Positions 5,623 to 58,735 of a stretch of DNA of 64,000 nt are shown piece by piece. How positions within the stretch are numbered: the stretch's first letter is position 1; the number at the start of each line of letters is the position of its first letter. This stretch comes from an uncultured Acidobacteriota bacterium (lineage in GTDB: Bacteria; Acidobacteriota; UBA6911). The notes under the pieces were generated by a model that worked only from the letters and a program-made list of their open reading frames with translations, had not been told where the DNA came from and ran no database searches. Position numbers and translations under genes: made by a program. Location of the stretch: the NCBI GenBank assembly GCA_963809485.1, contig CAWEJX010000006.1, positions 64,001-128,000 of the forward strand. Direction: 5' to 3'.

Positions 5623-5685
5623 GAGTGCTGAAGCGCCCGCATCCCACTCCGCCTGAACGTTGCGATGGGTTCAGCCGGACAGCCT

Positions 5686-39884: not shown

Positions 39885-40562
39885 ATGGCAGAAGAAAAAA
39901 GCAAATCTGGGGAACAGGAAAACAGCGAAGGATCCGGACAGATCTCCCGCCGGGCTTTTCTGAAGGATGCGGGACTGGTTGTCGGTACGCCCGCCATAGG
40001 ATCCATGGTGGCGCCGGCACAGGCAGAGGCCCAAACGCCCAAGGGGCGGGCGGCGCAGGCGAGTGCGGCCGGTTCGTCATTGGAGAAGCGCCCGGCACTC
40101 CCCCATACTATCGAGCTGACAGTCAACGGCGGCAAATACCGTTATACGGTCGAGCCGCACTGGAGTTTGCGGCAGCTCCTGCGCGACGAAATCGGGTTCA
40201 CCTCGCCCAAGGACTGGTGTGGAGGGGTAGGCGCCTGCGGCTCCTGTACGGTGATTATGAACGGCCGACCGATTCTATCCTGCCTGACCCTGGCCTGCGA
40301 GTGCGATGGCGCAATCATAGAGACCGCAGAGGGTATTGCAAAGGCCAAACACCCGATCATCCAGGCCTATATCAACAACAATGCCTTTCAATGCGGATAT
40401 TGCACGCCTGGATTTGTATGCACAGCCAAGGCTTTGCTGGATAAGAATAAGAATCCGACCGAGGCCGACGTAAGAGATGCTTTGGGCGGCAACCTGTGCC
40501 GGTGCGCGACCTACCAGCGCCATCCTCCGGCTGTCCTGGAAGCTGCCAGGAATCTCAAATAG
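39885..40562 (+). CDS. Molybdenum hydroxylase small [2Fe-2S] subunit with twin-arginine motif (PaoA/CoxS-like)
   Basis: ISRRAFLK; CGGVGACGSCTV..SC; FQCGYCTPG; GNLCRC. Confidence 0.9.
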   Translation: MAEEKSKSGEQENSEGSGQISRRAFLKDAGLVVGTPAIGSMVAPAQAEAQTPKGRAAQASAAGSSLEKRPALPHTIELTVNGGKYRYTVEPHWSLRQLLRDEIGFTSPKDWCGGVGACGSCTVIMNGRPILSCLTLACECDGAIIETAEGIAKAKHPIIQAYINNNAFQCGYCTPGFVCTAKALLDKNKNPTEADVRDALGGNLCRCATYQRHPPAVLEAARNLK

Positions 40563-40703
40563 CAGGCTCCGGGCGGCTGGATCGCCAGCAGCGGCCAACC
40601 GGGCAAAAACCGATGCCGATGCGGGCATGAATCCCGCCCGCAGCCCCTGGGGAACCCGGATGTAGTTTTTGAGAGTTATCGGAAACGAGGCAGGAGCCAA
40701 AAC

Positions 40704-41666
40704 ATGAAGACATGGAAAAGATTCGAGCACGTGAATGCAAAAACGGTCGAAGAGGCTGCTTCCATTTTGCGCAAAGGGAAAGCGGCGCTCCTATCCGGGG
40801 GCACCGACCTTCTGGGTGCAATGAGGTTTGAAATTCTGCCGAACTATCCCGAAGTTGTGGTAAATCTCAAAACTATTCCGGGAATGGACTACATCAGAGA
40901 AGAAGCGGGCCTGCTGAAAATAGGCGCTTTGACCAGGCTGGAAGACATCGCCAAAAACAATCTTGTCAAAACCCGGTACACGGCATTGGCTGAAGCGGCC
41001 CACCGGACAGCCACGCCTCACATCCGCGAGATGGGAACCATTGGCGGCAATATCTGCCAGATGAACCGGTGCTGGTATTTCCGCAACCCCGACAACCGGT
41101 TCAACTGCATACGCAAAGGCGGGAAGATGTGCTATGCCATGGCCGGAGACAACCGGTACCACTCCATTTTCGGGGCGGTCAAAATGTGTTTGGCCGTCAA
41201 TCCGAGCGATACGGCGCCGGCCCTGGTTGCGCTGAATGCCAAAATCAAAACCAACAAGAGATTGATTGAAGCCGAGAAGTTCTGGGAAATGACAGTCCCC
41301 GGGTCCACGGTCCTGGCCCCCGATGAAATCGTCACCGAAATACAGATACCCTCGCCGGCTGCAGGCGTCAAAAGCGCATACATGAAGTTTGCTATCCGCA
41401 AATCCATAGACTTCCCGATCGTCAACTGCGCCGCCATGATAGGCGGAGGCAATGCGCGTATATGCCTCAATGCGGTGCATAACACTCCCTACCGGGCGGT
41501 GCCCGCGGAAGAAGCCATCAAAGGGAAGGCGATCACTGAAGACAGCGCGGATGCGGCCGGAGCGGCCGCTGTGGCCTCCGCTAAAGCGCTTCCCGGCGAC
41601 AGGAACAAATGGAAAATCCCAATTGCCAAGGCAATGGTGAAGAGAGCCATATTAGGTTGCGCTTAA
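40704..41666 (+). CDS. Molybdenum hydroxylase FAD subunit with [4Fe-4S] insert (PaoB/HcrB-like)
   Basis: SGGTDLL, GTIGGNICQ..RCWYFR..C..C..HSIFG..C..PSDTAPAL, RKSIDF. Confidence 0.9.
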   Translation: MKTWKRFEHVNAKTVEEAASILRKGKAALLSGGTDLLGAMRFEILPNYPEVVVNLKTIPGMDYIREEAGLLKIGALTRLEDIAKNNLVKTRYTALAEAAHRTATPHIREMGTIGGNICQMNRCWYFRNPDNRFNCIRKGGKMCYAMAGDNRYHSIFGAVKMCLAVNPSDTAPALVALNAKIKTNKRLIEAEKFWEMTVPGSTVLAPDEIVTEIQIPSPAAGVKSAYMKFAIRKSIDFPIVNCAAMIGGGNARICLNAVHNTPYRAVPAEEAIKGKAITEDSADAAGAAAVASAKALPGDRNKWKIPIAKAMVKRAILGCA

Positions 41667-41796
41667 CCCTCATGGATCACCCGTGATTCGTGCGCCGGGC
41701 GCAAATCCCCGGTGCACGAAAGCATCCCGACAACGCCGCAAGCTAATCTGAATTCCTAAGCGCACGGACCTATCCCGACTGGAGCAGCAGACTTGT

Positions 41797-42861
41797 ATGG
41801 GCAATCTGGAGTTCTCGGTTCCCTACAACAATGATCCTGAAACTCTTTCCGAAATCTTTCCATTAAAAGAGAAAAACGGCAACCGCATCCGTGAGATTTA
41901 TCTTTCGGGCCCCCAGGAATTTTCCGGCGCAGGCAGGATCGTGCCGGAAATGGATACCGGGGAATTCGTGCGAGTCGTGGAGAGGATCCACAGGGAAGGG
42001 ATTCGAGTAAATCTGCTGCTCAACTCGATTTGCGAAGGGAGTGATTGGTATTCCCCGGGCGTCCTGAAGTCGACCATGGAATACCTCGGGAAGGTGCACG
42101 GGGAATACGGAGTTGAATCGATCACCATTGCGAATCCCCTGTATATCCGTGAGGTGAGAAAGCGCTTCCCGGATCTGGAAATCTGCGCCTCCGTGCTCGG
42201 GGACATCGATTGCGTGGAGAAAGCCGTCATTTTTAGAAAAGCCGGAGCAGATGTCATCACGCCCCACATCGATATCAACCGGGACCTCGCCCTGCTTCTA
42301 AAAATAAAAAATGCCACGGGGGCTCAAATAAAGCTGATGGTCAATGAAGGGTGCCTCTTCCGCTGCCCGTTCCGGAAGTTCCATTTCAACTATATTTCGC
42401 ATAAATCGAGAAATCCGGGGATGAAACAGGGAGTGAAGGCAGAAGACAATGTCTTCAGCCTCAACTGCATCCAGCTCTCCAAAAGCGATCTCTCCCAGAT
42501 CCTGAAGTCCTGCTGGATACGCCCGGAAGATGCGGCGAAATACAGCCGGATAACCAGCTACTTCAAACTGGTGGGCAGAACAAGCTCAAAGAGCATGCTC
42601 ATCCGGTCGGTGGATGCCTATCTGCAGGAAAGCTGGGATGGCGACCTTCTGGAGCTGATGGCGGGCAACCTTTACTCGCTCGCAATGTCCCATCTCATGC
42701 ATCTCGACAATAAGAGCCTTGACGAAATCGGCTTCTTTCAAAAAGTCACCTCCTGCAATAAGGAATGCAGCGAATGCGACTACTGCAGCGCTCTCATAGG
42801 AAAGCTTGTCAAACGCGGTGTTTTCACCCCTGCAAAAATCCAGGACCTTGGACTGAAATAA
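41797..42861 (+). CDS. U32 'peptidase' family Fe-S protein
   Basis: NLLLNSIC, ITIANP, DINRD, MVNEGCLFRCP, WIRPED, FKLVGR, C-terminal CNKECSECDYC. Confidence 0.8.
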   Translation: MGNLEFSVPYNNDPETLSEIFPLKEKNGNRIREIYLSGPQEFSGAGRIVPEMDTGEFVRVVERIHREGIRVNLLLNSICEGSDWYSPGVLKSTMEYLGKVHGEYGVESITIANPLYIREVRKRFPDLEICASVLGDIDCVEKAVIFRKAGADVITPHIDINRDLALLLKIKNATGAQIKLMVNEGCLFRCPFRKFHFNYISHKSRNPGMKQGVKAEDNVFSLNCIQLSKSDLSQILKSCWIRPEDAAKYSRITSYFKLVGRTSSKSMLIRSVDAYLQESWDGDLLELMAGNLYSLAMSHLMHLDNKSLDEIGFFQKVTSCNKECSECDYCSALIGKLVKRGVFTPAKIQDLGLK

Positions 42862-42893
42862 TTCTTTGCGGCCTCCAGGATGGGGATTGTGCG

Positions 42894-43685
42894 ATGAATC
42901 GCGATAACTGGGTAAAATCGATGGGCCTGGATGTGGATGGCAACCTGTTCGTCGAAATCGACAACGGGATAAAACTATACGACCTGTGCCTGAATCACCC
43001 CCTGCCTGCTCCTGTGGAGATCCATCCCAGGGACCTGATGAAGACTGAAAACCGGCCGTTATACAATCGCTATCTCACGACCCTCAATGAGATCGCCGGA
43101 GTCATGATCCATCCTTCCTATGATGCGCGCTACCGTTTCCGGGGCGGGGACATCGTCGTGGACGCCGGAGCCCGCATCGGAACCTTTGCGGCCAAAATTT
43201 CCGCAGCCGTCGGCGAGAAAGGCAAAATTATCGCTATCGAGCCTGAACCGCGCAACTTTGCCTGCCTCCTCAAGAACATCAAAGCAAACAATCTGACCAA
43301 TGTTCTTGCGGTCCCCAGGATGCTCTGGAGCCGGGAAGAGCAGCGGGACCTGTACCTTTCAGAGTACACGGCGGCGCACAGCGCCTATTTCGATGAATTC
43401 TATCAATCCACCGGAGAGCACATCTGTGTCGATGCGGACTCGCTGGACCACATCCTGGAAAGCCTGGGCACAGGGCCGGCGGATTTTATCAAGATGGACA
43501 TAGAAGGCGCGGAAATCGAGGCCCTCGCAGGGATGAAAGTCGCGCTTGAAACCGTGGGGCAGATGGCCATCGCCGCCTATCATCCGGTTGATGGAAAGCT
43601 CACTCACAGGGTGATCATGCCCCAGCTCGAGCAACTCGGCTTCAAAACCACCTATTCCGACGGGATAGTGCACGCGCAACGATAA
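42894..43685 (+). CDS. FkbM-family SAM-dependent methyltransferase
   Basis: VVDAGARIG, AIEPEP, FIKMDIEGAEIEAL, AAYH. Confidence 0.88.
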   Translation: MNRDNWVKSMGLDVDGNLFVEIDNGIKLYDLCLNHPLPAPVEIHPRDLMKTENRPLYNRYLTTLNEIAGVMIHPSYDARYRFRGGDIVVDAGARIGTFAAKISAAVGEKGKIIAIEPEPRNFACLLKNIKANNLTNVLAVPRMLWSREEQRDLYLSEYTAAHSAYFDEFYQSTGEHICVDADSLDHILESLGTGPADFIKMDIEGAEIEALAGMKVALETVGQMAIAAYHPVDGKLTHRVIMPQLEQLGFKTTYSDGIVHAQR

Positions 43686-44085
43686 TTACATTGGTAAACC
43701 CCCGGCTCTGACGGGGGACTCAAAGAGTTTGACAGCTCCGTATTTTGAAACGCTGAGAAACGCTGATAAAAGCGCTGACAAACACCGATTTGTTCGGCGA
43801 GGGTCGGCGAGCAAAAGCCGATGAGGCGCTTCCGATGGAGTTTTCTGCGGCGGCACTGTGGCAAGCGTCCGGTTTCTCATACCCTTCATCTGCTTGCCGC
43901 ACGGCGCTTGCCACAGTGCCGCCGCAGAAAACTGTCCAGCGCGGAGCGCTGGCCCCTGCGGGGGATCGGAAGCGCCTCATCGGCTTTTGCCCGCGTAAGT
44001 CAGCGTTCAAGACCGGCGTAACTAGTCCAACCGCTTTAAGCGGTTCAAATCTTTCAAGCCTCAGGCTTTGCCGGAGGTGCCTGAC
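43683..44085 (+). mobile_element. Non-autonomous IS200/IS605-end element, long form, copy D
   Basis: Nearly identical to copy B; fills the gap between two convergent stop codons. Confidence 0.82.
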
Positions 44086-44086
44086 T

Positions 44087-45070
44087 TCAGACGGACTCGA
44101 CGCAGGCCAGAATGGATCTCTTTACCAGAGTCTTGGCGATTTGAACCATATACGCATTCCGTTCCGTCGGGACTGCGGCCTCAACGGCCGCGCGACCTGC
44201 GGCCTCCGCGATCTCCTGGTCAACCTTTTGCCTCAGGATGGCTTTTTCCGCCTTCACGGCGCGATAGGGCTTGACCCAAACCGCATTGAGACAGATTCTG
44301 GCGGCCGTAACCTTTCCGGATGAACTCGAGATCATCGCGGCGCAGTTGACGATGGGGAAGTCGATGGACTTCCGGATGGCGAACTTGAGGAAAGCGCTTT
44401 TTGAGTTCCTGGACGGTTCCGGCACGTGTATCTCGGTGACGATTTCGTCAGGTTCCAGGACAGTGGTTTTTGCCACGTCGACCTGGAAAAGGTTTTCGAC
44501 GTCCAGCACTCTTTTTGAAGTCATTGCCTTCGCGTTAAGCGCGATCAGGGCCGGCGCCGTATCGCTGGGGTGCACGGCATAGCACCCGCCCTCGACGCTC
44601 CCGCCGAAGATGGAGTGGTAGCGGTTGTCCCCTTCGATGGCATAGCATCTCCCGCCTCCTTTTCTGAGGCAGGGGAACCGGTTGTTGGGGTTCCTGTAGT
44701 ACCAGCACCGGATGTCCTGGCAGAGGTTGCCGCCGAGCGTTCCCATTTCCCTCAGGTGCGGGGAAGCCGTGCGGCCGGCCGCCTGAGCCAGCGCCGCATA
44801 TTTTTCCCGGATCAGGGGCTCTCTTCCGATATCCTCCAGCCGCGTCAGGGCTCCGATCCTCAGCACGCCGGCTTCCTCTTTGAGGAAATCAAGGCCCGGA
44901 ATGGTCTTAATGTCTATGAGGGCTTCGGGATACCTGGGAAGTATTTCGTCCTTCATCTTTCCCAGTAGATCGGTGCCGCCCGCGATGAAGCAGGCCCGGT
45001 CCCCATATCTGCTGAGAGCCGCAACGGCCTCATCGACCGTCCGGGCATTGATATGCGTGAACTTTCTCAT
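44087..45070 (-). CDS. Molybdenum hydroxylase FAD subunit with [4Fe-4S] insert (second paralogue)
   Basis: AGGTDLL, GTLGGNLCQDIRCWYYR..C..C..HSIFG..C..PSDTAPAL, RKSIDF. Confidence 0.9.
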   Translation of the reverse strand: MRKFTHINARTVDEAVAALSRYGDRACFIAGGTDLLGKMKDEILPRYPEALIDIKTIPGLDFLKEEAGVLRIGALTRLEDIGREPLIREKYAALAQAAGRTASPHLREMGTLGGNLCQDIRCWYYRNPNNRFPCLRKGGGRCYAIEGDNRYHSIFGGSVEGGCYAVHPSDTAPALIALNAKAMTSKRVLDVENLFQVDVAKTTVLEPDEIVTEIHVPEPSRNSKSAFLKFAIRKSIDFPIVNCAAMISSSSGKVTAARICLNAVWVKPYRAVKAEKAILRQKVDQEIAEAAGRAAVEAAVPTERNAYMVQIAKTLVKRSILACVESV

Positions 45071-45131
45071 AATCGTTCTCCTGAAGGCATGGTCGGCTCG
45101 AGCCCTCATTCGAGCTCATGCGTTGCATGCT

Positions 45132-47569
45132 CTATGTTTTGCCAAGGGCTTGAGAACCCTCTCGGGCGTGACCGGAAAGGTATCAATCCACACACCGATG
45201 GCGTTGTGGACCGCGGGCATGATAAGTGCCGGGACGACTGTCGCCACGTCTTCGCCGATTCCAATGGCGCCGTAGGGGCCGTAGCCCATGCCGGTTTCAA
45301 CGAGAATCGTATCCACCGATCCGATATCGAGAGTCGTGGCTATTTTGTAATCGAGGAGGTTGCCGTTGAGCATGACGCCGGTCACGGGATCGTGGATCAC
45401 CTCTTCGCTTTTGCCCCTGCCCACTCCCATGTAGGTGCCGCCGTATTGCTGCCCTTCGCAGCCCTCCCAGCTGATCACCTTTCCCACATCGTTGACGTTC
45501 ACCACCCTGGTGACTTCGACTTCTCCGGTCTCCGTATCCACTTCCACTTCCATGAAATGGGCCTGCCTGCAGAGCCGGAGCCGTGTGCCCGAATAGGCGC
45601 CCTGCTGGACCTGCCAGGAGTAGGCAAACAGGGGATCGGTGAAATTGCTCCGCTGGGCGCCCTTTCCCATTTCGGGCTGGGCGATCATCGGGCCTTCCAA
45701 CCCGGCGGCGCCGACAAACTGCCCGATGGTCATCTTCATGGAAGGATCCTCTTCACGAAGACGACGCTGTCTTTGATGTCCAGGTCCTCGGGCTTGTAGC
45801 CCGGAAAAGCGGGCGGGAAGCTGCCCCTCGATGTCACGCCGCGAGGCCCGATCGCCGCCTCCAGTATCTTCTGCTTCAGCAGCCTGGCCGCATTCCGGAC
45901 GGCGTAGCCGTTCACCGACATGTTTGTGGACGAATCGGGAGTCATGGCATAGAAGCCGGCATCGATCTGATTCACAAAATGCACATCCTCGATGCGCATT
46001 CCCAATTCGTCCGCCGCGACCTGGCAGTAGGCGGTTTCGGCATTGAGGCCGCAGTCGGCGCGGGCACGAAAAAATGGTTGCGGTCCCGTCCGTTCTCTCG
46101 ATGCGTATACCTGCTTCGCTCGATCCCGCGGAATCTTCCCATTCATGCGTCCAGGTGAATCCCAAGCCGTGCATCCTGCCGTTGGGCAGTTTCGTCTGCC
46201 CGGCGCATGCCAGTTCCTGTTCCAGCCGATGGCGGCCTTGCCTTTTTCGATGCATTCCCTCAGACTGTCCCGCACCGGGAAACCCATCTCGGCCTTGTGC
46301 TCGTTCAGCCATTCCATGTCGTGGCCTTCGGCTCCGTCGTTTTTCAGGGCAACTTCCGTCGGGTCCAGGCCGAGGACGTCGGCAATGCGGTCGAACACAA
46401 GGGTCAGGTTCATCGCGTTGGTATTCTGCTCGCAGCGCGTGGGCACGTTGATGCCCTTGTTGATCTGGACGGCTGTCAGTTTCCCGTAGATGTTGGGAAT
46501 TTTGGTGTTTTCCAGGAAGTGAGTCACCGTGCCGAAAACAGGGAACCAATGGTTGGAAAGCACGACTCGAGACCTCCACCGCGGTAATGGTGCCGTCCTT
46601 TTTGGCGCCTACCCTGTACCGGTAGACACCTTCATCCATCTCGCCGCCGTAAAAGTCCTCTCTGCGGGTGAAGGTCCATTTGACGGGCCGTCCCGTTCTC
46701 TTGGCCACGACGCCGGCGCAGTAGTGCCCTCCCATGTTCCAGGGCACCTGGCTCCATCCTCCAAAGCTCGCACCCTGGTAGGGCAATGAACCTGTATCCG
46801 GTTCATGGGAATCCGCCGAACCAGGAAGAGAGGACCCGCTTGCTGATATAAGGACGCTGCTGCTTGACCCAGATTTCCGGGCTTTCTCCGTTCCATCTGA
46901 AGACGCCGCATGGGCGTTCCGGCCCGATCCAGGTGTGAAGCAGCCGCCTGCATTCGAACTCGACGATCCTGTCGGCTTCGGCAAATCCCTTTGACAACGT
47001 CTCCATGTTGCTCGACGTCCAGGAATCCTTCGTTGTAGTGATTGCCGCCGGGATACGTCTCGGGATTCACCAGCGGAGCTCCCGGCTTCAATCCCTCTTC
47101 GGCATCGAGAACGAAGGGACGCTCTTCCCATTCCACTTCGATCAGCCGCAGCGCTTCATCGGCGATTGCTTCCGTATCCGCGGCAACGAAGGCGCCGACT
47201 TCCTCGCCCTGAAAGTAGGCGATTCCGGGGAAGCACGGGTATCGCGTTGGGGACGTGGCCGCCGAGGTCGGCCAGCGGCGGCAGTTCCGGGATCGTCGTA
47301 GCGGAGCACTGCTCGGACGCCGGGCAGCGCTTCGGCCTTGCTCGTGTCCATGGATACAATCCGGGCATGGGGATAGGGCGAGGTCAGAAATTTTCCGTGG
47401 AGCATTCCCGGAAGGGCTGATATCCATGGTGTAGACAGCGCCTGGCCGCTCGCCTTTTCGTAGCCGTCGAGCCTGCGGACTCCGCGCCGCCCGATGTGAT
47501 TGTATTCCTTCAGCGGGTACCTGTCGAAGCTGCGATTGTCGAAGAGTTCGAACAATCTTGCTGTTCCAC
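45132..47569 (-). CDS. Molybdenum hydroxylase large (molybdopterin) subunit B, broken by multiple indels
   Basis: Fragments in alternating frames: RRLDGYEKASG, SPYPHARI, QGASFGGW, TRREDF, TRCEQ, EVEVDTETGEV..DVGKVI..GQQYGG..NGNLLDYK..GPYGAIGIGE. Confidence 0.8.
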
Positions 47570-47647
47570 ATCCTCAAGCATCCCGGATCTCCATCCTGGA
47601 TTCGAGATTATTTAAAAGACGGCTGCGGGACAATCTCGAATCAGGAA

Positions 47648-50105: not shown

Positions 50106-50107
50106 GG

Positions 50108-50734
50108 CTACTTTGCCTCCCGCAGCGTTTGGGCCGCTTCCAGGATGGCTTTGGGGTGCTGCGGATAGGTGCCGCAACGGCAAAGGTTGCCTCCCAGCGC
50201 CTCCCGGATTTCCTGTTCTGTCGGATTGAGATTCCGGTCGAGAAGAGCTTTTGCCGTCACCACGAATCCGGGCGTGCAGTAGCCGCACTGCATGCAGTGA
50301 TGCTTGACGTACGCCTCGACCAGCGGATGCCTGGATGCCGCGATGCCTTCTACCGTTTCAATCTGCTTCCCGTTACATTCGATGGCCAGCGTCATGCAGG
50401 AAAGGATGGGGCGGCCGTTCATGATGACGGTGCAGGAGCCGCAGGCTCCGCGATCGCACATCAGTTTGGTGCCGGTAAATCCCAACCTGTCGTGGATGAG
50501 GTAATGCAATGTCCAGTCGGGCTCAACCTGAAACCTGTATTTCTGGCCGTTGATTGTGAGGTGAATGGTCCCTTCCGGCTCGGGAAGCGGCTCCCCCTTG
50601 TGCTTATCGATGATGTGGGATTTTATGGCTTCAAACGAGTCGAGAGTATCCAGGCAATACGGGCAGGAATACCTGGCTAAAGCATGGGTTGGCTGGTTCA
50701 CCCGGACTGTCTTTTTCGTAACTTTCTCGGACAT
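50108..50734 (-). CDS. Molybdenum hydroxylase small [2Fe-2S] subunit with N-terminal C2H2 zinc finger
   Basis: YSCPYC-x12-H-x4-H, then GTKLMCDRGACGSCTV, MQCGYCTPG, GNLCRC. Confidence 0.9.
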   Translation of the reverse strand: MSEKVTKKTVRVNQPTHALARYSCPYCLDTLDSFEAIKSHIIDKHKGEPLPEPEGTIHLTINGQKYRFQVEPDWTLHYLIHDRLGFTGTKLMCDRGACGSCTVIMNGRPILSCMTLAIECNGKQIETVEGIAASRHPLVEAYVKHHCMQCGYCTPGFVVTAKALLDRNLNPTEQEIREALGGNLCRCGTYPQHPKAILEAAQTLREAK

Positions 50735-50860
50735 GACTGGTTGCTCCTTCTACAAAGGGGCGATAGGATCGTTTTTCAATAATGCCGCGTGGCTGCTGAA
50801 GCCATCGGCCGGCTGCGCGGTTCGCGCAATTGGGACCTCAGGGATGTGCTTTACCCTTCG

Positions 50861-52102
50861 CTACCGACGGCCGCCGAGCGTTCTGAGGTACACGGACTGC
50901 TCAATACGGCTTTCGTATTCTTTCCGGAAAAAGTTCAGTGTATCCGTAAGCGGCGTTGAAGCTGTCTGCCCCAGGCCGCACAGCGCCGAAAGGGACATAA
51001 CGCTGGCCAGGTCTTCCAGAGCGCCGATATCCTCGCTGGCCCCTTCTCCCCTGGTCAGCCTTCCCAGGATTTCGAGCATCGCCTCCGTGCCGTCCCTGCA
51101 GGGAGTGCATTTGCCGCACGATTCCTCCGCCAGAAACTCCATATTGCGGTACATCAGGTCGATGATGTCCCGTGTCTGATTGAATACCGTGACGGCTCCG
51201 GACCCCAGGATGCTCTCGTAGGAGAGCGGAGTGTCGAGCATCTCCGCAGGGACAGCCCGGCCGCAGGCACCGCCAACCTGTATCATTTTTATATCCCGGG
51301 CGCCTGCCAGATCGACGACCAGTTCTTTAAGTTTGCTCCCCATTTCGAGCTCGTAAACGCCGGGCGATGCCACGTCTCCGCTTACCGAAAAAACCTTGGT
51401 CCCCTTGCTGCGATCTGTCCCCATCTCGCGGAACCACGCGCTGCCGTTGAGGATGATCTGGGGCACATTCATCAGGGTCTCGACATTGTTGATAATTGTG
51501 GGCATACCCCAAAGGCCTTTGGCCGGGGGGAAGGGGGGCTTGTAGCGCGCCTCTCCCCTGAGGCCCTCGATGGAATTCATCAGACCCGATTCTTCGCCGC
51601 ACATATAAGCGCCGGCTCCCTCACGAAGCTCTATGTCCAGATGGTTGAGGAATCCCCGTTCCCTGGCCTGGCGGATGGTGTTGAGGATCAAATCGAACAG
51701 AAAATGGTATTCCGCGCGGAGGTACAGGAATGCTTTCCGGGCTCCGACCGCCCAGCCGGCTATGGCGATCGCCTCAATGAGAGTAAAGGGATCGTTTTCC
51801 AGCAAAAACCTGTCTTTGAAGGTGCCGACCTCACCCTCGTCCGCATTGCAGATGATGTACTTTTCGTCGGCCGCACGCTCCCGGGCGAGCTTCCATTTCA
51901 ACCCGCAGGAGAATCCGGCGCCGCCGCGTCCCAGCAGGCCCGAAGCAATCACTTCCTCGATCACTTTCTCGGGCGTCATCTGCTTCTGCGCTTTCTCCAA
52001 AGCGGCGAAGCCATCATTCTTTAAAAAAGAATTGATGTTTTTGGGATCGATCCGCCCACAGTTTTTAATGATGACCCGTTTTTGCACAGCCATTTCCTCC
52101 AA
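50861..52102 (-). CDS. NuoF-like FMN/NADH-binding subunit
   Basis: SGLLGRGGAGF, CNADEGE, GAGAYMCGEE, NNVET, ESCGKCTPCRDG, LCGLG; no extra C-terminal ferredoxin domain. Confidence 0.92.
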   Translation of the reverse strand: MEEMAVQKRVIIKNCGRIDPKNINSFLKNDGFAALEKAQKQMTPEKVIEEVIASGLLGRGGAGFSCGLKWKLARERAADEKYIICNADEGEVGTFKDRFLLENDPFTLIEAIAIAGWAVGARKAFLYLRAEYHFLFDLILNTIRQARERGFLNHLDIELREGAGAYMCGEESGLMNSIEGLRGEARYKPPFPPAKGLWGMPTIINNVETLMNVPQIILNGSAWFREMGTDRSKGTKVFSVSGDVASPGVYELEMGSKLKELVVDLAGARDIKMIQVGGACGRAVPAEMLDTPLSYESILGSGAVTVFNQTRDIIDLMYRNMEFLAEESCGKCTPCRDGTEAMLEILGRLTRGEGASEDIGALEDLASVMSLSALCGLGQTASTPLTDTLNFFRKEYESRIEQSVYLRTLGGRR

Positions 52103-52111
52103 GGGTGCCCG

Positions 52112-53218
52112 TCAATACTGTTTCAGAATCCTGGATATTTTTTTCGGGGTCAGGTTCCCGTGCACGTCCTGATTCACAAGCATCGCGGGAGCCATGTCGC
52201 AAGCCCCGATGCAGTTGGCCAGCTGCAGAGAAAATTTCCTGTCGCGTGTGGTTTCACCGGGCTTTATGCCAAGCGTATGTTCGATGCTTTGCAGGATCAA
52301 TTGCGAGCCCTGCAGATAGCAGGGGATGCTTTTGCAGACCCTGATGACGTTTTTCCCGACCGGTTGGGTGGAGAGATAGGAATAGAAGGTGGAAACCCCG
52401 TAAACATCGCTGACGGAGAGATTCAGGGCGTCGGCCGTTTTTGCCATGAATTTCGGTGAAACATGACGGGACGATTCCTGAGCCTTCTTGAGCATGGGGA
52501 GCAGTTCACTGCATTTCTTATCCTGGGGACTGGGCCGGGGCTCGATCGACGCCATTTTCCTGCCTCTCTTTTTGTCCTCCGGATGCCTGGCTTTGGTGAG
52601 CGCGCTGGTTGGACAATACTCCACGCAGAGGTAGCAGTCTTTGCAGACCTCCTTATTCAAAGGAATGTCATTGTCGACGATGACCTTCGAGTTGAAGGCC
52701 CTGTATCCGTTGCTGTAGATCCTCTTCCCTGCCAGTTCATTGCACGCGGCGATGCACCGGGAACACAGGATGCATTTGGACAAATCGCGGTGAATGTATG
52801 GACTTACATCCTCGACCGGGTAAAAACGCGGCCTTTTGACGCTGAACCTGGGAGGACCCATCTCCAAATCGGAAGAAACCTTGTGCAGGCTGCAGTTCAC
52901 GGCCCACTGATCCATCACACAGGGCCCCGTGTGGCCGGCCAGAAGAAGCTCCAGAGTGGCTTTGCGCGCCGATATCACTTTGGGAGACCGGGTGTGCAGC
53001 ACCATTCCCTCCGCGATCGGTGTGTGACAGGACGCGACCAGACGGTTGGATTTTTCGAGTTCCACGACGCAGATGCGGCAGGACCCTGTCGGAGTCAAAT
53101 CACGGTGATGGCAGAGCGTGGGAATGCTGATTCCGGCCTTTTCGGCGGCCTCAAGTATCGTCATTCCTTCGTGCCCTTCGACTTCTTTGTCGTCTATTCG
53201 GAGTTTTATGGATTCCAT
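52112..53218 (-). CDS. Fusion of a NuoG/HydA-type N-terminal Fe-S relay with a NuoE-type [2Fe-2S] domain
   Basis: IPTLCH..GSCRICVVE..ASC; CILCSRCIAAC; CKDCYLCVEYCP; then VYGVSTFYS..CKSIPC..NCIGACDMAP. Confidence 0.88.
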   Translation of the reverse strand: MESIKLRIDDKEVEGHEGMTILEAAEKAGISIPTLCHHRDLTPTGSCRICVVELEKSNRLVASCHTPIAEGMVLHTRSPKVISARKATLELLLAGHTGPCVMDQWAVNCSLHKVSSDLEMGPPRFSVKRPRFYPVEDVSPYIHRDLSKCILCSRCIAACNELAGKRIYSNGYRAFNSKVIVDNDIPLNKEVCKDCYLCVEYCPTSALTKARHPEDKKRGRKMASIEPRPSPQDKKCSELLPMLKKAQESSRHVSPKFMAKTADALNLSVSDVYGVSTFYSYLSTQPVGKNVIRVCKSIPCYLQGSQLILQSIEHTLGIKPGETTRDRKFSLQLANCIGACDMAPAMLVNQDVHGNLTPKKISRILKQY

Positions 53219-53580
53219 CTTCCTCACCACACTTTCTTCCTGCTGCCGGTTCTTCCATCCGCTGCGGATCACGAATCTGCGAGGTTCGTGGTCCAGCCGG
53301 ACGGCGGACCTGTGTAGCGGATGCCTCGCCGATCATAGTCCAAAGCCGGGCTTTTTCGAAAGCAAAATGTCGGCGCGAAAATCGTCGTAATGGCGGCAAA
53401 AAGGGTTTAAACGAGACCTGCATCCGAGGTTTTTCGGGTGAGGAAAAAACCTGAGAATATCCGTTTGGATTTCAGCCTGCAGGGGCAGGTTTGAGGCTGA
53501 AACCTGTACTTGCCTGCTGAGCGTATGATTCCCCGCCGGAGCCGCCTCGACAGGAAGGCGTGAGAAGAACGGAGTCCTCA

Positions 53581-53612
53581 TCATCCGGCAGAGCCGGGGG
53601 ATCTCCCATTGG
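53581..53612 (-). repeat. Isolated IS200/IS605-end-like hairpin
   Basis: Reverse complement CCAATGGGAGATCCCCCGGCTCTGCCGGATGA resembles 2132-2170. Confidence 0.5.
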
Positions 53613-53613
53613 A

Positions 53614-54702
53614 CTAGTAATAGAAAAACTGGGTCTGGATGACGATCTGATTGCGGTCGGGCGAATTGTCCTTCAGTAGCCGTCCGAATCCCCCTTTGAT
53701 ATTGAGCTTGTGCTTGAGGATCCAGTAGGCCAATCCACCCTGGACTTTTATGTCGTCGGACAAGCCGGGCTTTGTGAAGTCCCGGGAAGCGAATTGGACA
53801 AAAGGCCCGAGTTTTGCCTTCTTGAAGTAATAGGAACCCTCCATCATCCAGGCATTCTGCTGGAGGAGGGATGTAAAAGAGGTCCCGCCGTCGTAGCGGA
53901 TAAAGTCGGCTTGAAACGTGACGGCGTCGCCGTTTGGGAGGGGGTGATCCAAAAACAGATCCACCCCGTTGGCGCTATAGTTGCCCTGACGGTCGATGGT
54001 AGCGCCTATGCTGAGTATTTTCTTCTGTCCGTGGGTTGTCCCCGTGTAGAAAAAGCCCGTGTCCGCTTCGAGCGGATACCATACCACTCGAACCATGTAA
54101 CGATAGGGGAAATCGCCTTCGTGGTTCCGGTTGCCCCGGTAGATGCCGACGCGATATTCAAAATGCTTCTTGATGTAGCCCCGGGCCTGCAGTCCGTAAT
54201 CGCGGCCAAACTTGGAAAATGTCGGGTCGGAGGCCAGAAAAGAGTAGGGCCCGTAATCTATAGCGAGGAGCGTGGCGGCGGATTGTCCGGAGTTGTGGGA
54301 TACCGGGACAATCAGCATCCCTCCGTCGAGCTGGAATTCGGGACGGAAAGCGTAATTGAGGTAAAGGTCCTGCAGGAATATTTCAGAGTTTCTCTTTCCG
54401 TCGAATCCCTCTTTGCCGAGGTTAGGGCTGTCGCTTTCCACGAAGAACGAAAGCTTTGGGGTTATTTTCCCGCCCGCAATAAGCCGGAACCTCCTGAGAA
54501 AGAGATTGTTCAAACTGTCTGTTGCCGACACGTTTTCGAGCGATTCAAATTGCGGTTGTGCCAGAAAGCCGAACGAAACGGAGGTCTTGCCTCCATTCAG
54601 CGTGAATTTCCATGGGGGTCCTGAGGCGTATGCCGGCTGCGGGCCGTGCAAAATAAAAGCCGCCAGACAGGCTGTGAGGCAGATATTGCAAACGAGTTTC
54701 AT
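53614..54702 (-). CDS. Outer-membrane beta-barrel porin (OprO/P-like or short-chain-amide-porin-like)
   Basis: Signal peptide, FLRRFRLI, GRDYG, alternating beta-strands, C-terminal aromatic QFFYY. Confidence 0.75.
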   Translation of the reverse strand: MKLVCNICLTACLAAFILHGPQPAYASGPPWKFTLNGGKTSVSFGFLAQPQFESLENVSATDSLNNLFLRRFRLIAGGKITPKLSFFVESDSPNLGKEGFDGKRNSEIFLQDLYLNYAFRPEFQLDGGMLIVPVSHNSGQSAATLLAIDYGPYSFLASDPTFSKFGRDYGLQARGYIKKHFEYRVGIYRGNRNHEGDFPYRYMVRVVWYPLEADTGFFYTGTTHGQKKILSIGATIDRQGNYSANGVDLFLDHPLPNGDAVTFQADFIRYDGGTSFTSLLQQNAWMMEGSYYFKKAKLGPFVQFASRDFTKPGLSDDIKVQGGLAYWILKHKLNIKGGFGRLLKDNSPDRNQIVIQTQFFYY

Positions 54703-54819
54703 GTTTCGTCCTTCCCGGCGGCCCTCATGCGCGGCAACGGAAGCCGGAGCTTAGGCTGGCGTGCAGCTTCTGCAAGACCGCACGATGGGTCCGGCGCGAT
54801 GCAGAGGACTGGCTTATCC

Positions 54820-54863
54820 AAAAAAACGGCCCACGGAATGAAATTCCCTGCATCCGTGGGCCG
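54820..54863 (-). terminator. Rho-independent terminator after the methyltransferase module
   Basis: CGGCCCACGGA..TCCGTGGGCCG stem followed by a T-tract on the minus strand. Confidence 0.6.
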
Positions 54864-54910
54864 ATGTAAAAAGAGCGGGTTTTCCGGGGAACCGCCCGGT
54901 TGCCGCTCTG

Positions 54911-56260
54911 CTATTTGTATACGCCGTACTCTTTGGTTGTGTCGATGAGGGCGTGCAGATTATCCGCCAGAGCCTCATCCAACACTGCGCCGTTGGACAT
55001 GAAGTATCCGCCGTCGCCGGCCACATCGTCCAGCAGGCGTTTGACACCATCCCTGACCTGCTCAGGCGTTCCCGTCTTTAGCAGCGAAGAAGGGAAGTTG
55101 CCGCCAAAGCAGCCCCAGCCGCCCAGGTATTTCTTCACATTCTTCATGTCGGTCTTGTCGAAGAACCAGATGGTCGTGCCGGCCGGGATGTCGGGATCGG
55201 TGATGATATCCAGCCTCTGGTTATAACCCCCCTCCACGAAGGAATACGGGATCAATCCCTCCTTGATTAGCCCCAGAATCACGGCTTTGTAGGACGGCCA
55301 GTAGAACTTCTTGAAATCGGCAGGGGACATGAAGCTGTCCGCTCCCTTGTGCAGCGGAACGAACACTGTCGGGGGGTCGCCCCATTGCGAATTGCGCACG
55401 CCCATGTCGATCATCAGGGGAATTATGCGTTCGCAAGCTTCAAGTATTTCTTTGGGCTTGCGGAATTTGTCGAGCAGGATTGCGCGCGTGCCGCGCATGG
55501 TGTCCCCGATAACATCCAGCGGCGCTTTCGAGAATGCTCCCTGGAATCCGGGCAATCCCAAAGTGCCCTTGATGGAGTTGCCGATTTCACCGACTTTTGT
55601 GATCCATTCCAGCGAGAGTTTGCCCGCCTCCATGATTTTTTTCAGGCTTTCCTGGACGTGAGGCAAACCGAAATGGAACATTCCCGGGCCGATAAACGGC
55701 AGTTCGAGAAGATCGGTGAACGGAGGAAGCGTGCTCCAGGCCTCGAAGGCTCCGAGAACCCTGGGTAGGTAATAGCGCAGGAAGTAGTCGGAGGGATCAC
55801 GCATGAACTCCGTGTATTCACTCGCCTTCATGAACTCGGCTTCCGCGCACTGGTAGGGGGTGTTTTCCGGTACGCCATGACCGGGCCAGTGGTAGAGCTT
55901 ATAGTCCAGCAGGTCAAACGCCTTGCCTGGGCCGTAGAGCCCCGCGGGCGCCGAGACATCCGGCAGGAAATCGGCGTGGAACTTCATCAGAGCCTTGCCG
56001 AGGATCTCGTAATCGTACATCGGGTCCCTGCAGGTGTAGCCGCCGTAAACGAACGGATAGAAACCGGTCGATATGGAAACCGGCACCCGTTCGGGCTTCT
56101 TCAGCTTGACTATATCAATAAGCATCTGGCAGCGTTTTTTATACGCCTCTTCCATCTGCTTGTTGGCAAACTGAACACCCTCGGGGTTCTGCCAGGCTTT
56201 AAGCCGGGTATCGAGCTTTTCGGATGGTGTAAGTTTGTCAAAATCGGCTGGTTTAGGCAT
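54911..56260 (-). CDS. Uroporphyrinogen decarboxylase/MtaA-CmuA family protein, probable substrate:corrinoid methyltransferase
   Basis: KPERVPV, MRGT, VPLHKG..FMS..FKKFYWP, GGNFP..GTPEQV..GGYFMS; next to a corrinoid protein. Confidence 0.8.
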   Translation of the reverse strand: MPKPADFDKLTPSEKLDTRLKAWQNPEGVQFANKQMEEAYKKRCQMLIDIVKLKKPERVPVSISTGFYPFVYGGYTCRDPMYDYEILGKALMKFHADFLPDVSAPAGLYGPGKAFDLLDYKLYHWPGHGVPENTPYQCAEAEFMKASEYTEFMRDPSDYFLRYYLPRVLGAFEAWSTLPPFTDLLELPFIGPGMFHFGLPHVQESLKKIMEAGKLSLEWITKVGEIGNSIKGTLGLPGFQGAFSKAPLDVIGDTMRGTRAILLDKFRKPKEILEACERIIPLMIDMGVRNSQWGDPPTVFVPLHKGADSFMSPADFKKFYWPSYKAVILGLIKEGLIPYSFVEGGYNQRLDIITDPDIPAGTTIWFFDKTDMKNVKKYLGGWGCFGGNFPSSLLKTGTPEQVRDGVKRLLDDVAGDGGYFMSNGAVLDEALADNLHALIDTTKEYGVYK

Positions 56261-56262
56261 GG

Positions 56263-56901
56263 TTATTTTGCTCCCACCCATCCCTTGGACAGGTTCACCG
56301 CCGCCATGGCATCTTTTCCGTAGGCGTCGGCCTTGGCATAGGCGCAGACCTGGTCATCCATCTGTCCGCCGCCGATCATGATTTTGACGCTGTCGCGCAG
56401 GCCGGCATCCTTGAGAGCCTGGACAGTGTTTTTCATGGGATCGTAGGCAAGCGTCAGGAAGCCGCTGAGCCCGACGACCTGGGGCTTGAAGCTCTTTACT
56501 GCCTCCACGAACTTGGCGGCCGGAACATCCACGCCGAGATCCATCACATCGAAACCGTTGATATCCAGCATGAATACCACGATGTCCTTGGCGATGTCAT
56601 GGATGTCGCCTTCCACTGTGCCGAAGACGATACGGCCCAGTTTCTTCTGAGGCGCGCTGCCCGAGCTCGCGATCTTCGGTTTAACCATCGCCCCGATCTG
56701 CCGCAGCATTTCGCCGGCCAGGATCAGTTCGGGCACGAAGCATTCGCCGGACGCAAACCGGTCTCCGATGATGCCGAGGGCTGTACGGCAATCATCCAGA
56801 AGGCCAACGGGATCCGCGCCTTCGTTCAGCAATTTTTCCGCAATCTTTACGGCATCTTCCTCACGCATATCAACGACGGCATCAATTAATTCTTTCGCCA
56901 T
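56263..56901 (-). CDS. Corrinoid (B12-binding) protein
   Basis: FVPELILAGE cap, GTVEGDIHDIAKDIV (DxHxx), DLGVDV, GLSGFLT, IGGG. Confidence 0.95.
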   Translation of the reverse strand: MAKELIDAVVDMREEDAVKIAEKLLNEGADPVGLLDDCRTALGIIGDRFASGECFVPELILAGEMLRQIGAMVKPKIASSGSAPQKKLGRIVFGTVEGDIHDIAKDIVVFMLDINGFDVMDLGVDVPAAKFVEAVKSFKPQVVGLSGFLTLAYDPMKNTVQALKDAGLRDSVKIMIGGGQMDDQVCAYAKADAYGKDAMAAVNLSKGWVGAK

Positions 56902-56973
56902 GGTGCTCTCCTTTTTTGCTTCCTTTGGGTAAGTGTTACTCAATAATAACCAAAACCAACTTAGACGGGATCT

Positions 56974-57774
56974 CTACTGCTTGTTAAAAACTCCCGCGCG
57001 GAACGCGCGCGTATACTTGAGACAATGCTTGTCATGCCCCAGCAGAAGATCCGTGGCCAGCATCGCGGTCTTGATTTCATGGTCCATCGGATCGCAGATA
57101 GCGCTGTCGAGCCCTGCCTGCATGGAAAGAATCAGAAATACGCGATTGATATAGGAACGGGCGGGCATTCCGAAGGAAATGTTGCTCAACCCGCAGGTCA
57201 CGTGGACTTCCGGGAATTCGCTTCGGATGGAGCGGATGGTGTCGAAGAAAATCAATCCGTTTTCCTGGCCGGTCGAAATCGTCATCGCCAGGGGATCGAA
57301 ATAGAGCTGGTCGTCCGCGATCCCCAGCTTGCGGGTTTCGACGAGCAGCCGGCGAATGACGGACAAGCGGTCTTCTTTTGTTTTGGGGATGCCCTTTTCA
57401 TCCAGGGCCAGAGCAATGGCGGGAGTCTTGTGGGCGGCGACAATCGGCAATACCCCTTGCAGCCTGTGCGGCTCGGCGCTGATCGAGTTGATCATCGGGG
57501 TTTGTTTGACTGCCTTGATCGCCACTTCCAGCGCTTTCGGATTCGCACTGTCCAGGCAGATCGGCTTGTCGGTTACAGCCTGGATATTTTCAACCAGCCA
57601 GATCAGATCGTCCGCTTCGCGGCTTGGATGAGTGCCGGCATTGGCGTCGAGCCAGTCTGCGCCCGCATCTGCCTGCTTCTTTGCCAGGTCCTGGATGAAT
57701 GCTGCGTCGCGTTCCTGAATAGCCTGCGCTACCCGTTTCCGCGTCCCGTTGATTTTTTCTCCAATGATCTTCAA
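56974..57774 (-). CDS. Methylcorrinoid:tetrahydrofolate methyltransferase (AcsE/MeTr-like pterin-binding)
   Basis: IIGEKINGT, LDANAG, CLDS, INSIS, YFDPL, GLSNISFGMP; AAGGAG RBS before TTG. Confidence 0.92.
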   Translation of the reverse strand: MKIIGEKINGTRKRVAQAIQERDAAFIQDLAKKQADAGADWLDANAGTHPSREADDLIWLVENIQAVTDKPICLDSANPKALEVAIKAVKQTPMINSISAEPHRLQGVLPIVAAHKTPAIALALDEKGIPKTKEDRLSVIRRLLVETRKLGIADDQLYFDPLAMTISTGQENGLIFFDTIRSIRSEFPEVHVTCGLSNISFGMPARSYINRVFLILSMQAGLDSAICDPMDHEIKTAMLATDLLLGHDKHCLKYTRAFRAGVFNKQ

Positions 57775-58230
57775 ATGAACTTCTCCTTTCAAAAATCACC
57801 TGCCCGAAGCTGCGCACAGTTCTAAATCTACGAGCTTCACCTCCGGCGAACTCATGCAGGTCCAATATTACCCTATCAAATATCAATAAATAACAAGTAC
57901 TTGGATTATCGAGGGCTTTTGGGGCGGGCGCAGAAAACCAGAGAATCGATCCAAGCCTTATCGATTGTTCCCCAAACAATAAAGTGCCCTATAAAACTGC
58001 CACAGAATTTCGATTTATAGGACATTTTAAGGCGCTACACAAGCGATTTTATTGCCACCGGCATACCAGAAGCAGCGGATCCGGCGCCGCCCATTCCAAA
58101 CCGCACCCATCCTCAGCATTCCACCGGTCCGGCGGCACTCGAATTTCCGCCTGCCAAGCATTGGATTGACACCGGTGTGTCCCATAAAGTACCCTCATAG
58201 TAGTTGTATTCGATAAACTGGAGGTAGCAA

Positions 58231-58419
58231 ATGCCGCATCTCGGTACCACAGAGCTTATAGTCATCCTTGTGATCGTAATCCTGATTTTTGGCGTGAATA
58301 AGATACCGCAGCTGGGCAAGGGGCTCGGCGAAGGCATCCGGAATTTCAAATCCTCGCTGAAAGCAGGCCAGGAAGAGCCGCAGGCGAAAAACGACAAAAA
58401 CGAGCCCAAGGCAGGATAA
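58231..58419 (+). CDS. tatA: Twin-arginine translocase TatA
   Basis: GGAGG RBS; [34 protein letters not shown]. Confidence 0.95.
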
Positions 58420-58509
58420 TTTCCCAAGAAAGGTCACCCAGACTTCCGCATCCAAGGAATCAGCTGCGCAATCCTCCAGGCAATTCCAGCAAAAGGCTCC
58501 AGGACCCTG

Positions 58510-58735
58510 TAATTCTATTGGTAAATCTGCGGCTCTGCCGGGGGACTCATAGAGTTTGACAGCTCCGTATTTTGAAACGCTGAGATACGCTGACAAAAGC
58601 GCTGACAAACACCGATTTGTTCGGCGAGGGTCGGCTTTTGCCTGCGTAAGTCAGCGTTCAAGACCAGCGTAACTCCTCCAACCGATTTGAGCGGTCCAAT
58701 CTTTCAAGCATCCGGCTTTGCCGGAGGTGCCTGAC
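58510..58735 (+). mobile_element. Non-autonomous IS200/IS605-end element, short form, copy E
   Basis: Near-identical to copy A. Confidence 0.8.

Follow-up and report, generated by a model that had tools for sequence, protein, structure and literature searches.

What does the 18-kb stretch at positions 39885-57774 of this window encode, one pathway or several neighbours? The window is the whole 64,000-nt piece of DNA that was analysed, from the genome of an uncultured Acidobacteriota (G000 below); all coordinates are positions in it, and "the genus" means the genus of its host. The first-pass annotation took the stretch for a single island in which uptake and corrinoid-dependent demethylation are coupled to molybdenum (Mo)-dependent redox chemistry and NAD(H). 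Gene identities were assigned by Pfam and NCBIfam profile searches and compared with the cut-off of each model, and all of the genes in that description are present, at or near the places it gave. The interpretation we favour, to which we give roughly an even chance, is that the stretch consists of three neighbouring minus-strand units that form no demonstrated single pathway, one of them specifying an NADH-linked Mo enzyme for which aldehyde-type chemistry is the best guess. The object of interest is this enzyme, a member of a clade with the active-site motif RCEQ coupled to an NADH module, rather than the link to demethylation; coupling of the two is possible, and it is a lead, not a finding.

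As read from the sequence, the Mo enzyme is specified by a six-gene operon, nuoGE-nuoF-small-LSU1-LSU2-FAD (LSU, large subunit), and is predicted to be a cytoplasmic, non-bifurcating, NAD(H)-linked member of the xanthine dehydrogenase (XDH) family. The first gene (52112-53272, on the minus strand like the rest of the operon) fuses a NuoG-N/HoxU-like Fe-S domain to a NuoE-like [2Fe-2S] domain (Fer2_4, Fer4 and 2Fe-2S_thioredx, with matches to HoxU, NuoE and NuoG models), a fusion that is conserved in 16 other loci at a mean column identity of 59%. The second (50861-52102) encodes a 413-aa NuoF-like NADH/FMN subunit that matches TIGR01959 with E=2.3e-124, below the cut-off, and carries Complex1_51K, SLBB and NADH_4Fe-4S domains only. 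Pfam finds in it none of the extra ferredoxin-type Fe-S domains (clusters B2-B5) that define BfuB, which is why we class the enzyme as non-bifurcating. Then come the small subunit, which carries two [2Fe-2S] clusters (50108-50734; Fer2 and Fer2_2), the paralogous Mo-binding subunits LSU1 (47648-50105) and LSU2 (45116-47581), and an FAD subunit (44087-45109), so that the large subunits have both of the partners of an XDH-family holoenzyme. Since no twin-arginine (Tat) motif is present in the sequence of the small subunit, the enzyme would be cytoplasmic. The FAD subunit bears a four-Cys [4Fe-4S] insertion of about 45 residues (FAD_binding_5 spans 216 residues for a profile of 170 positions), in which C135, C147, C155 and C176 are invariant in 17 sequences; its best solved match is the medium subunit of an aldehyde oxidase (5y6q_B, E=1.8e-36), and PaoB is also matched (E=6.8e-33). 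Electrons would pass between NAD(H) and Mo along a route that takes in FMN (in NuoF), the Fe-S clusters of the fused NuoE/NuoG-N protein, the [4Fe-4S] cluster and FAD that the FAD subunit carries, and the small subunit's two [2Fe-2S] clusters. No description of an XDH-family enzyme with a NuoEF-type module was found in the open full-text literature, outside which subscription journals lie.

Both large-subunit genes of the earlier description are thus present; what it left unsaid is that neither is an open frame in the window, a point taken up below. PF01315, PF02738 and PF20256 are found on the window fragments, and close homologues have all three. LSU1 and LSU2 are 52% identical and form two clades in the tree, that of LSU1 (nine full-length sequences) with support 1.0. 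All XDH-family NCBIfam models match the intact orthologues of both proteins, but the best equivalog scores stay far under the cut-offs: 308 vs 994.55 for HcrA (TIGR03194), 287 vs 780 for XdhA, 189 vs 1180 for PaoC and 154 vs 991 for CoxL (TIGR02416). The large subunits therefore lie outside every characterised NCBIfam equivalog, in agreement with the first-pass view that this is not a characterised system, and the placement inside a known clade that would have undone that view was not found. The best solved match of LSU2 is HcrA (1rm6_A, E=1.4e-59, residues 31-811).

What sets the clade apart is its active-site loop. The loop consensus of the XDH family is A(Y/F/M)RG(F/H)G, and HcrA reads AMRGHG in our alignment; LSU1, LSU2 and their relatives read (P/A)(T/V/I)RCEQ, with R kept in 72, C in 71, E in 71 and Q in 69 of 73 full-length sequences. 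The catalytic Glu, in G(I/V)GEDV, aligns with that of HcrA and is present in 72 of the 73 clade members. In the alignment the RCEQ Cys falls opposite the one in the active-site loop of CoxL (AYACSFR, 8uem_A), the residue that binds copper in carbon monoxide dehydrogenase (CODH); HcrA has Gly there (RGHG). By these sequence features LSU1 and LSU2 belong to a sharply defined, uncharacterised clade. The motif occurs in only three of the 27 places in G000 that encode an XDH-type large subunit, and relatives of LSU2 make up at least 120 clusters at 69% identity or more, among 4629 matches. The third RCEQ-type gene of the genome is solitary (G000:C8:308208-310646, 70% identical to LSU2) and shares its strand with genes for a PNPOx-like protein, a tungsten-type aldehyde:ferredoxin oxidoreductase and an MFS transporter. 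The same genome holds an island of XDH-family sets (C12 105-181 kb and C8 374-392 kb) with six large subunits, of which one is accompanied by a Uxd-like FAD-GltD fusion, together with UGSC-family proteins, proteins of about 414 aa without known function, FAD_binding_2 flavoproteins, MT1 (substrate:corrinoid methyltransferase) paralogues, MFS transporters and IclR/GntR regulators.

The operon recurs far beyond the genus. We collected 70 loci with LSU2 relatives (58-86% protein identity) from metagenome-assembled genomes (MAGs) labelled Acidobacteriota, several Desulfobacterota lineages, Chloroflexota, Bathyarchaeia, Actinomycetes and Pseudomonadota. A NuoF cluster is present in 23 of them, typically as NuoGE-NuoF-small-(LSU1)-LSU2-FAD, an arrangement seen in MAGs labelled Acidobacteriota, Desulfobacterota lineages, Chloroflexota and Bathyarchaeia; 37 loci have neither a NuoF cluster nor a GltD-type module, the other NAD(P)H-handling device of the clade. 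The orthologous demethylation trio adjoins the enzyme in just two of the 70, both from this genus, which argues that the operon is independent of the trio. Co-occurrence also points to how the NADH module may be attached. Residues 24-45 of the small subunit form an N-terminal C2H2 zinc-finger-like motif, CPYC-x12-H-x4-H, and this extension is found in 21 of 21 small subunits from Nuo-type loci and in three others, vs 0/12 from GltD-type loci and 0/7 from the remainder; the genus loci show it in 8/8. Because it occurs so strictly with the Nuo module, the extension is likely a docking piece for it. An AlphaFold2 model of the small subunit (16 sequences, mean pLDDT 62.5) folds the extension into two short strands and a helix at pLDDT of about 65, which is too weak to count.

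Several known systems share parts of this architecture. The 4-hydroxybenzoyl-CoA reductase (HCR) HcrABC of Thauera aromatica (1RM6/1SB3) is likewise a three-part XDH-family enzyme with a four-Cys [4Fe-4S] insertion in the FAD subunit and a catalytic Glu at the aligned position, although the insertion is also found in PaoB-type aldehyde oxidoreductases and not in HcrB alone. Against HcrABC, the beta and gamma models fall short like the alpha model above (163.5 vs 404.55 and 139.1 vs 257.8), the loop is RCEQ and not RGHG, there are two paralogous large subunits and a zinc-finger-like extension on the small one, a NuoE/F/G-type NADH module replaces ferredoxin as the presumed partner, and no CoA ligase or benzoyl-CoA genes occur in the window. 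The urolithin dehydroxylases UcdCFO/Ucdh and UxdFOC of Enterocloster are cytoplasmic xanthine oxidase (XO)-family enzymes fed by NAD(P)H. The accessible part of PMC12658268 describes in UxdC a built-in 4Fe-4S/FAD-NAD(P) module, which is matched in the RCEQ clade by an FAD-GltD fusion with the same small-large-FAD gene order in ten of the 70 loci. Here, by contrast, the NAD(H) input is a separate NuoGE and NuoF pair and the habitat is soil or wetland, not gut; the comparison is one of architecture descriptions only. PaoABC of E. coli (5G5G) and the Methylobacillus aldehyde oxidase (5Y6Q) share the [4Fe-4S]-bearing FAD subunit, for which the latter supplies the best match, and the commonest neighbours of the clade are genes of alcohol and aldehyde metabolism, with an XdhC-type "aldehyde oxidoreductase maturation factor" in one locus only (L077). 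The window enzyme differs from PaoABC in its low PaoC score, in its cytoplasmic location without a Tat signal, in the attached NADH module and in its loop. The module itself resembles HoxEFU of NAD-linked hydrogenases, the FdsABG-type formate dehydrogenase and Nqo1-3 in its minimal NuoF, its NuoE-like [2Fe-2S] domain and its HoxU/NuoG-N Fe-S domain, a class that is non-bifurcating according to the accessible text of PMC9304861; it departs from them in the fusion of NuoG-N with NuoE and in having an XDH-family enzyme as catalytic partner. Set against CoxL of form I CODH, the clade has a Cys that aligns at the loop position, but the rest of that loop differs (AY(R/A)CSFR in CoxL), the CoxL score is low, the context is anaerobic and no cox accessory genes are seen around the window enzyme.

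Upstream of the operon lies the methyl-transfer trio. It comprises a MeTr-type methyl-corrinoid:tetrahydrofolate methyltransferase (MT2; 56974-57792, minus strand; Pterin_bind; NF005719, 329 bits, cut-off 259), a small corrinoid (B12) protein (56263-56943, minus strand; B12-binding and B12-binding_2; TIGR02370, E=7e-47, 159 bits, under the cut-off of 215) and the 456-aa UroD-superfamily MT1 (54911-56281, minus strand; URO-D on residues 237-452). With all three encoded together, this is an O-demethylase-type system, and the first-pass assignment to the MT1/corrinoid/MT2 class is borne out by Pfam, by NCBIfam and by a match to chloromethane methyltransferase CdmB, the closest solved chain to MT1 (9rui_A, E=1.5e-35), although only the C-terminal half aligns (residues 228-453). 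MT1 would move the methyl group of its substrate onto Co(I) of the corrinoid protein, from which MeTr would pass it to tetrahydrofolate. One operon likewise unites UroD MT1, small corrinoid protein and pterin-binding MT2 in MtvABC, OdmABCD, MtoABCD and CdmBCA, according to the accessible part of PMC13222342, which further describes an MT1 family spanning vanillate, veratrol and methoxyaromatic O-demethylases as well as the haloalkane enzyme CdmB, inactive on methoxyaromatics; the substrate class of the window MT1 is therefore not readable from family membership. Unlike those systems, this one belongs to an uncultured Acidobacteriota genus in whose genome a single MT2 faces 17-20 MT1 genes. MT1 matches number 20 in G000 (17 places with long alignments) and are found in all 24 other genus genomes searched, 20 of which have an orthologue that is 65-96% identical, and in 5 of 16 genomes from the rest of the class. 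The PF00809 search of G000 returned three matches, namely the window MeTr, one of 262 bits, which we take to be FolP, and one below the cut-off; on that assumption the window MeTr is the only MeTr-type MT2 of the genome. There are four small corrinoid proteins, and the sole RACo-type activator (one PF14574 match, 270 bits) lies on another contig (G000:C20:582274-583020) with one TGA inside, which may be another assembly error or a real stop. One MeTr against so many MT1 genes, the four corrinoid proteins and the single unlinked RACo suggest that the trio is probably a shared hub, the exit by which methyl groups from many MT1s reach tetrahydrofolate, and not the partner of one enzyme.

The trio stays beside FTCD/HutI-type genes in 11 of the 14 genus loci described below. 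In the window these are FtcD (395 bits, cut-off 221) and HutI (466 bits, cut-off 298) at 58819-61682, and both systems feed one-carbon units to tetrahydrofolate. An N-methyl heterocycle or purine route, which the combination of FTCD with an amidohydrolase had suggested, was rejected, as the NCBIfam matches identify true FtcD and HutI, ordinary histidine-utilisation enzymes; the N-methyl heterocycles of the first-pass annotation accordingly drop out as candidate substrates.

Trio and operon are separated by more than distance. Two intrinsic-terminator-like hairpins (54819-54908, minus strand) directly follow the MT1 stop with a U run behind each, one at 54827-54862 followed by seven U and the other, directly 3' of the stop, followed by five; the pair folds with -47.3 kcal/mol (z=-2.08 vs shuffles). 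A simple terminator scan found 16 sites vs 17.6 in shuffles, that is, no excess, and missed the one at MT1 because its hairpin loop exceeds 8 nt. The terminator that the first-pass annotation placed at 54820-54863 is thereby confirmed, and with two of them its suspicion that the trio is transcribed separately is probably right. After a gap of 208 nt comes a candidate porin gene (53614-54702, minus strand; 362 aa), and after another of 341 nt the operon. The porin candidate has no Pfam match; it matches the NCBIfam ExtI porin model (E=5.4e-16, 58 bits, cut-off 150) and has a signal-peptide-like N-terminus and an aromatic C-terminus (...QFFYY), features of what is probably an outer-membrane porin. 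With an orthologue in only 3 of 14 genus loci, it is a variable neighbour rather than a conserved part. The terminators, the intergenic gaps and the variable genes between MT1 and nuoGE are the grounds for regarding the three as separate units.

To the genus we turned with 14 loci around the MT1 orthologue, onto which the window proteins were mapped. NuoGE-NuoF-small-FAD adjoins the trio on the same strand in eight of them and is missing next to it in six, one of which is a short contig. The large subunits stand beside the trio in three loci, LSU1 with LSU2 in two and LSU1 alone in one. What lies between MT1 and nuoGE varies: a porin, a DASS transporter, an alanine racemase with a GFO oxidoreductase, or RhuM with an SMC-like ATPase. 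Five loci (L013, L014, L016, L018, L020) keep NuoGE-NuoF-small-FAD intact without a nearby large subunit, three of them with an MFS transporter after the FAD gene, and the two of these genomes that were searched (G012 and G015) hold a solitary RCEQ-type large subunit elsewhere, which suggests that the electron-transfer set can work with a large subunit whose gene is not linked to it. Within G000 itself, 5 of 17 MT1 places have one of the 27 XDH-type large-subunit places no more than 15 kb away, vs 2.0 expected (P=0.04), and at two loci (L096 and L097) other MT1 paralogues share a strand with other XDH-family sets, whose large subunits are not of the RCEQ type. The enrichment was not repeated in five other genus genomes, where an XDH large subunit lies within 5 kb of 3 of the 49 MT1 genes and within 15 kb of 10; in the single-contig G012 it is 1 of 14 vs 1.12 expected. 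As support for coupling, co-localisation within genomes is weak and inconsistent. In the form given by the first-pass annotation, the single coupled island is not supported. Across the 70 loci MT1-like genes are found within 10 kb in ten, and the trio proper only in the two from this genus. Neighbourhood within one genus had overstated the link to demethylation.

Which reaction, then, does the enzyme catalyse? NAD+-linked oxidation of an aldehyde or of an alcohol-derived carbonyl is our best guess, though one we hold with somewhat less than even confidence. It is favoured by the alcohol/polyol dehydrogenase context together with the aldehyde-oxidase-like FAD subunit: alcohol dehydrogenase (ADH), aldehyde dehydrogenase (ALDH) or short-chain dehydrogenase/reductase (SDR) genes occur in 35 of the 70 loci (Zn-ADH in 17, SDR in 13), and a GldA-type iron-containing ADH (NF006941, 470 bits, cut-off 336) lies directly upstream of the enzyme genes in 14. 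The aldehyde could be aromatic and lignin-derived, or a hydroxy-aldehyde, made by the adjoining alcohol/polyol dehydrogenases; an aromatic one would also fit the occasional MT1 and ligase neighbours. Liv-type ABC transporters are present in 24 loci, PaaK-like ligases in 7, IOR in 6 and PocR sensor kinases in 3. Several observations pull the other way. The closest characterised relative of LSU2 is HcrA, a reductive dehydroxylase and not an aldehyde oxidoreductase; ten loci pair the RCEQ subunit with a Uxd-like FAD subunit carrying an inserted GltD-type NAD(P)H module; an ALDH beside the enzyme in three loci would be redundant with an aldehyde oxidoreductase; and no iron-containing ADH is found upstream of nuoGE in the genus loci. 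Nor do the ten loci with MT1-like/URO-D-like genes within 10 kb look like pure chance, since two of them, from other phyla, are compact and run on one strand: L055 (URO-D-like, RACo activator, MeTr-like, ABC, iron-containing ADH, LSU) and L090 (URO-D-like, AMP-forming (CoA) ligase, NuoGE, NuoF, LSU, small subunit). The main alternative, that phenols are reductively dehydroxylated at the expense of NAD(P)H as by HCR and Ucd, draws on the kinship with HcrA and on the Uxd-like sister architecture, and we consider it possible if rather improbable; in the accessible text of PMC12771579, Ucdh counts as just the second family member that dehydroxylates reductively, and further ones are expected. Combined with the trio, either chemistry could follow demethylation: the trio would demethylate a methoxylated aromatic and the NADH-linked Mo enzyme would dehydroxylate the product or oxidise its aldehyde (as in vanillin), the two forming a demethylate-then-transform module for lignin-derived monomers. 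We regard this route, and such a module, as doubtful. It gains from the eight same-strand genus loci, from L055, L090 and the other MT1-like neighbours, from the G000 enrichment and its one-strand pairs, from HcrA as the closest solved relative, from NAD(P)H-using XO-family dehydroxylases being known and the urolithin-induced cluster of E. bolteae holding a methyltransferase (accessible parts of PMC11760930, PMC12658268 and PMC12771579), and from the expression of methanol and methoxy-compound demethylation genes by mire Acidobacteriota (PMC10805028, accessible part). It is opposed by the two terminators, by the rarity of the orthologous trio across the 70 loci, by the unrelated genes that intervene and the large subunits that stand beside the trio in so few genus loci, by the failure of co-localisation to reappear in five further genomes, by the non-RCEQ type of the other MT1-adjacent large subunits in G000, by a trio that has the only MeTr of the genome and so cannot be specific to one enzyme, by polyol/alcohol dehydrogenases as the dominant context elsewhere, and by the lack of a CoA ligase in the window. 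HCR chemistry needs low-potential electrons, and a Bfu-type bifurcating or confurcating complex using NADH and ferredoxin could drive such a dehydroxylation; the extra [4Fe-4S] cluster of the FAD subunit could accept ferredoxin, and two large subunits share one electron-transfer set. We nevertheless hold such a complex to be very improbable, because the 413-aa NuoF has only FMN, SLBB and single 4Fe-4S domains and because, in the accessible text of PMC9304861, it is the extra clusters of BfuB that define the Bfu family, homologues lacking these are non-bifurcating, and the words "xanthine", "molybd" and "hydroxybenzoyl" do not occur. The boldest proposal, that the RCEQ clade is a new functional class of the XO family, with a complex-I-type NADH module docked through the zinc-finger-like arm, an invariant Cys, at the copper-ligand position of CODH, that supports chemistry undescribed for the family, and a role as NADH-driven phenol dehydroxylase directly after O-demethylation in wetland Acidobacteria, is in our view decidedly unlikely.

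Whether the enzyme is intact in this organism depends on the broken frames of its large subunits. In LSU1 a TAG stands in frame at 48990-48992 and the reading frame shifts near 48873, 48323 and 48100; LSU2 has at least eight frame changes. Compared with the closest relative (G006), and counting from the primary alignment only, as per-bin counts are inflated by paralogous second alignments, there are 14 indel positions in LSU2, two in the spacer and three in LSU1, vs none in six neighbouring genes. Two same-genus relatives, G006 among them, have intact genes, with an 879-aa open reading frame (ORF) for LSU1 from the first possible start, the true start probably lying about 60 residues into it, and 814/815 aa for LSU2. 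These single ORFs dispose of a split large subunit as in nicotinate dehydrogenase. Selenocysteine or pyrrolysine recoding and programmed frameshifting were also rejected, the TGA at 48155 being a wrong-frame artefact after an indel and the TAG site reading Cys or His in relatives and Tyr in LSU2. Among the short-read contigs of two public soil/wetland runs, one shows 28 gaps against the window over 44699-50272, vs 0-4 for contigs of flanking genes. Short-read contigs side with G006 against the window exactly at 46068, 46564, 46995 and 47234, and their differences at 47287 and 47422 fall 1-3 nt from the G006 positions 47288 and 47419. As the contigs of two runs and G006 agree against it, the window is the odd one out. 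Similar damage is seen at 5000-7300, where pth, L25/Ctc and prs are frameshifted, with 14 gap openings vs G006 in 5000-5999. The enzyme encoded by pth is not dispensable, and a tblastn search of the genome found no second copy of pth or L25 and, for prs, only one other match, at 33-36% identity. With single-copy essential genes carrying the same indel damage, relatives intact and independent contigs reading open, the breaks are probably patchy assembly or polishing errors, in a genome of 95.7% completeness and 7.3% contamination. Three facts sit badly with this explanation: one lesion is a substitution (the TAG), the divergence of run X1 contigs from the window is 7.2% across the LSU region vs 1.2-3.7% in the flanks, and the pth/L25 patch, too, is more divergent than its flanks. 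The large subunits could instead be true pseudogenes in a decaying island whose electron-transfer genes are kept for another large subunit such as the solitary C8 gene. The confinement of the TAG and 17 indels to two genes amid intact neighbours, the divergence in run X1, the five genus genomes without an adjoining large subunit and the C8 gene itself would all fit, but a like patch of indels and raised divergence in pth and L25, the frameshifted prs, the quality figures of the genome, and the open frames in independent contigs and two relatives make this unlikely.

The operon faces a group of plus-strand genes. A second small subunit (39885-40562), with the Tat motif SRRAFLK, and a second FAD subunit (40704-41666) have no large subunit beside them and are probably part of a separate, exported PaoAB-like system. 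They are followed by a U32-like protein (41797-42861, plus strand), weak by Pfam (Peptidase_U32, PF01136, E=0.0022, 17.8 bits, below the gathering score of 22.4), which has a protein-atlas feature score of 0.97 to U32 clusters, with 18 matches carrying PF01136, and is kept in 11 of 14 genus loci, and by an FkbM-family methyltransferase (42765-43685, plus strand). In the genus, the neighbourhood of the genes at 39885-42861 conserves a gene for a MOFRL-type glycerate kinase (36147-37604). An interspersed repeat of about 230 bp gives 430 blastn matches in G000, of which 154 reach 150 nt or more; G006 has about 45 copies. Its window copies lie at 10760-11000, 23603-23721, 23892-23996, 34326-34554, 43682-43808, 43980-44086 and 58510-58735, flanking the block 44087-58510 at both ends; a depth spike and loose ends at 44086 in the sequencing-run data fit a repeat edge, and some small ORFs in these places, such as 58195-58608, are probably spurious.

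Peat, wetland soil and sediment store much carbon as lignin-derived methoxylated and hydroxylated aromatics, and little is known of how uncultured Acidobacteriota, Chloroflexota, Desulfobacterota and Bathyarchaeia break these down without oxygen. If the RCEQ enzyme were indeed a dehydroxylase acting directly after O-demethylation, it would complete an oxygen-free "demethylate, then dehydroxylate" route for lignin-derived methoxyphenolics. The clade, whose members are 58-86% identical in MAGs that carry the labels of five or more phyla, is a widespread, highly conserved and uncharacterised enzyme, and its reaction, once known, would explain a gene set that is automatically annotated as "xanthine dehydrogenase" or "CO dehydrogenase" and would add to the few reductive or NAD-linked reactions known for the XO family.

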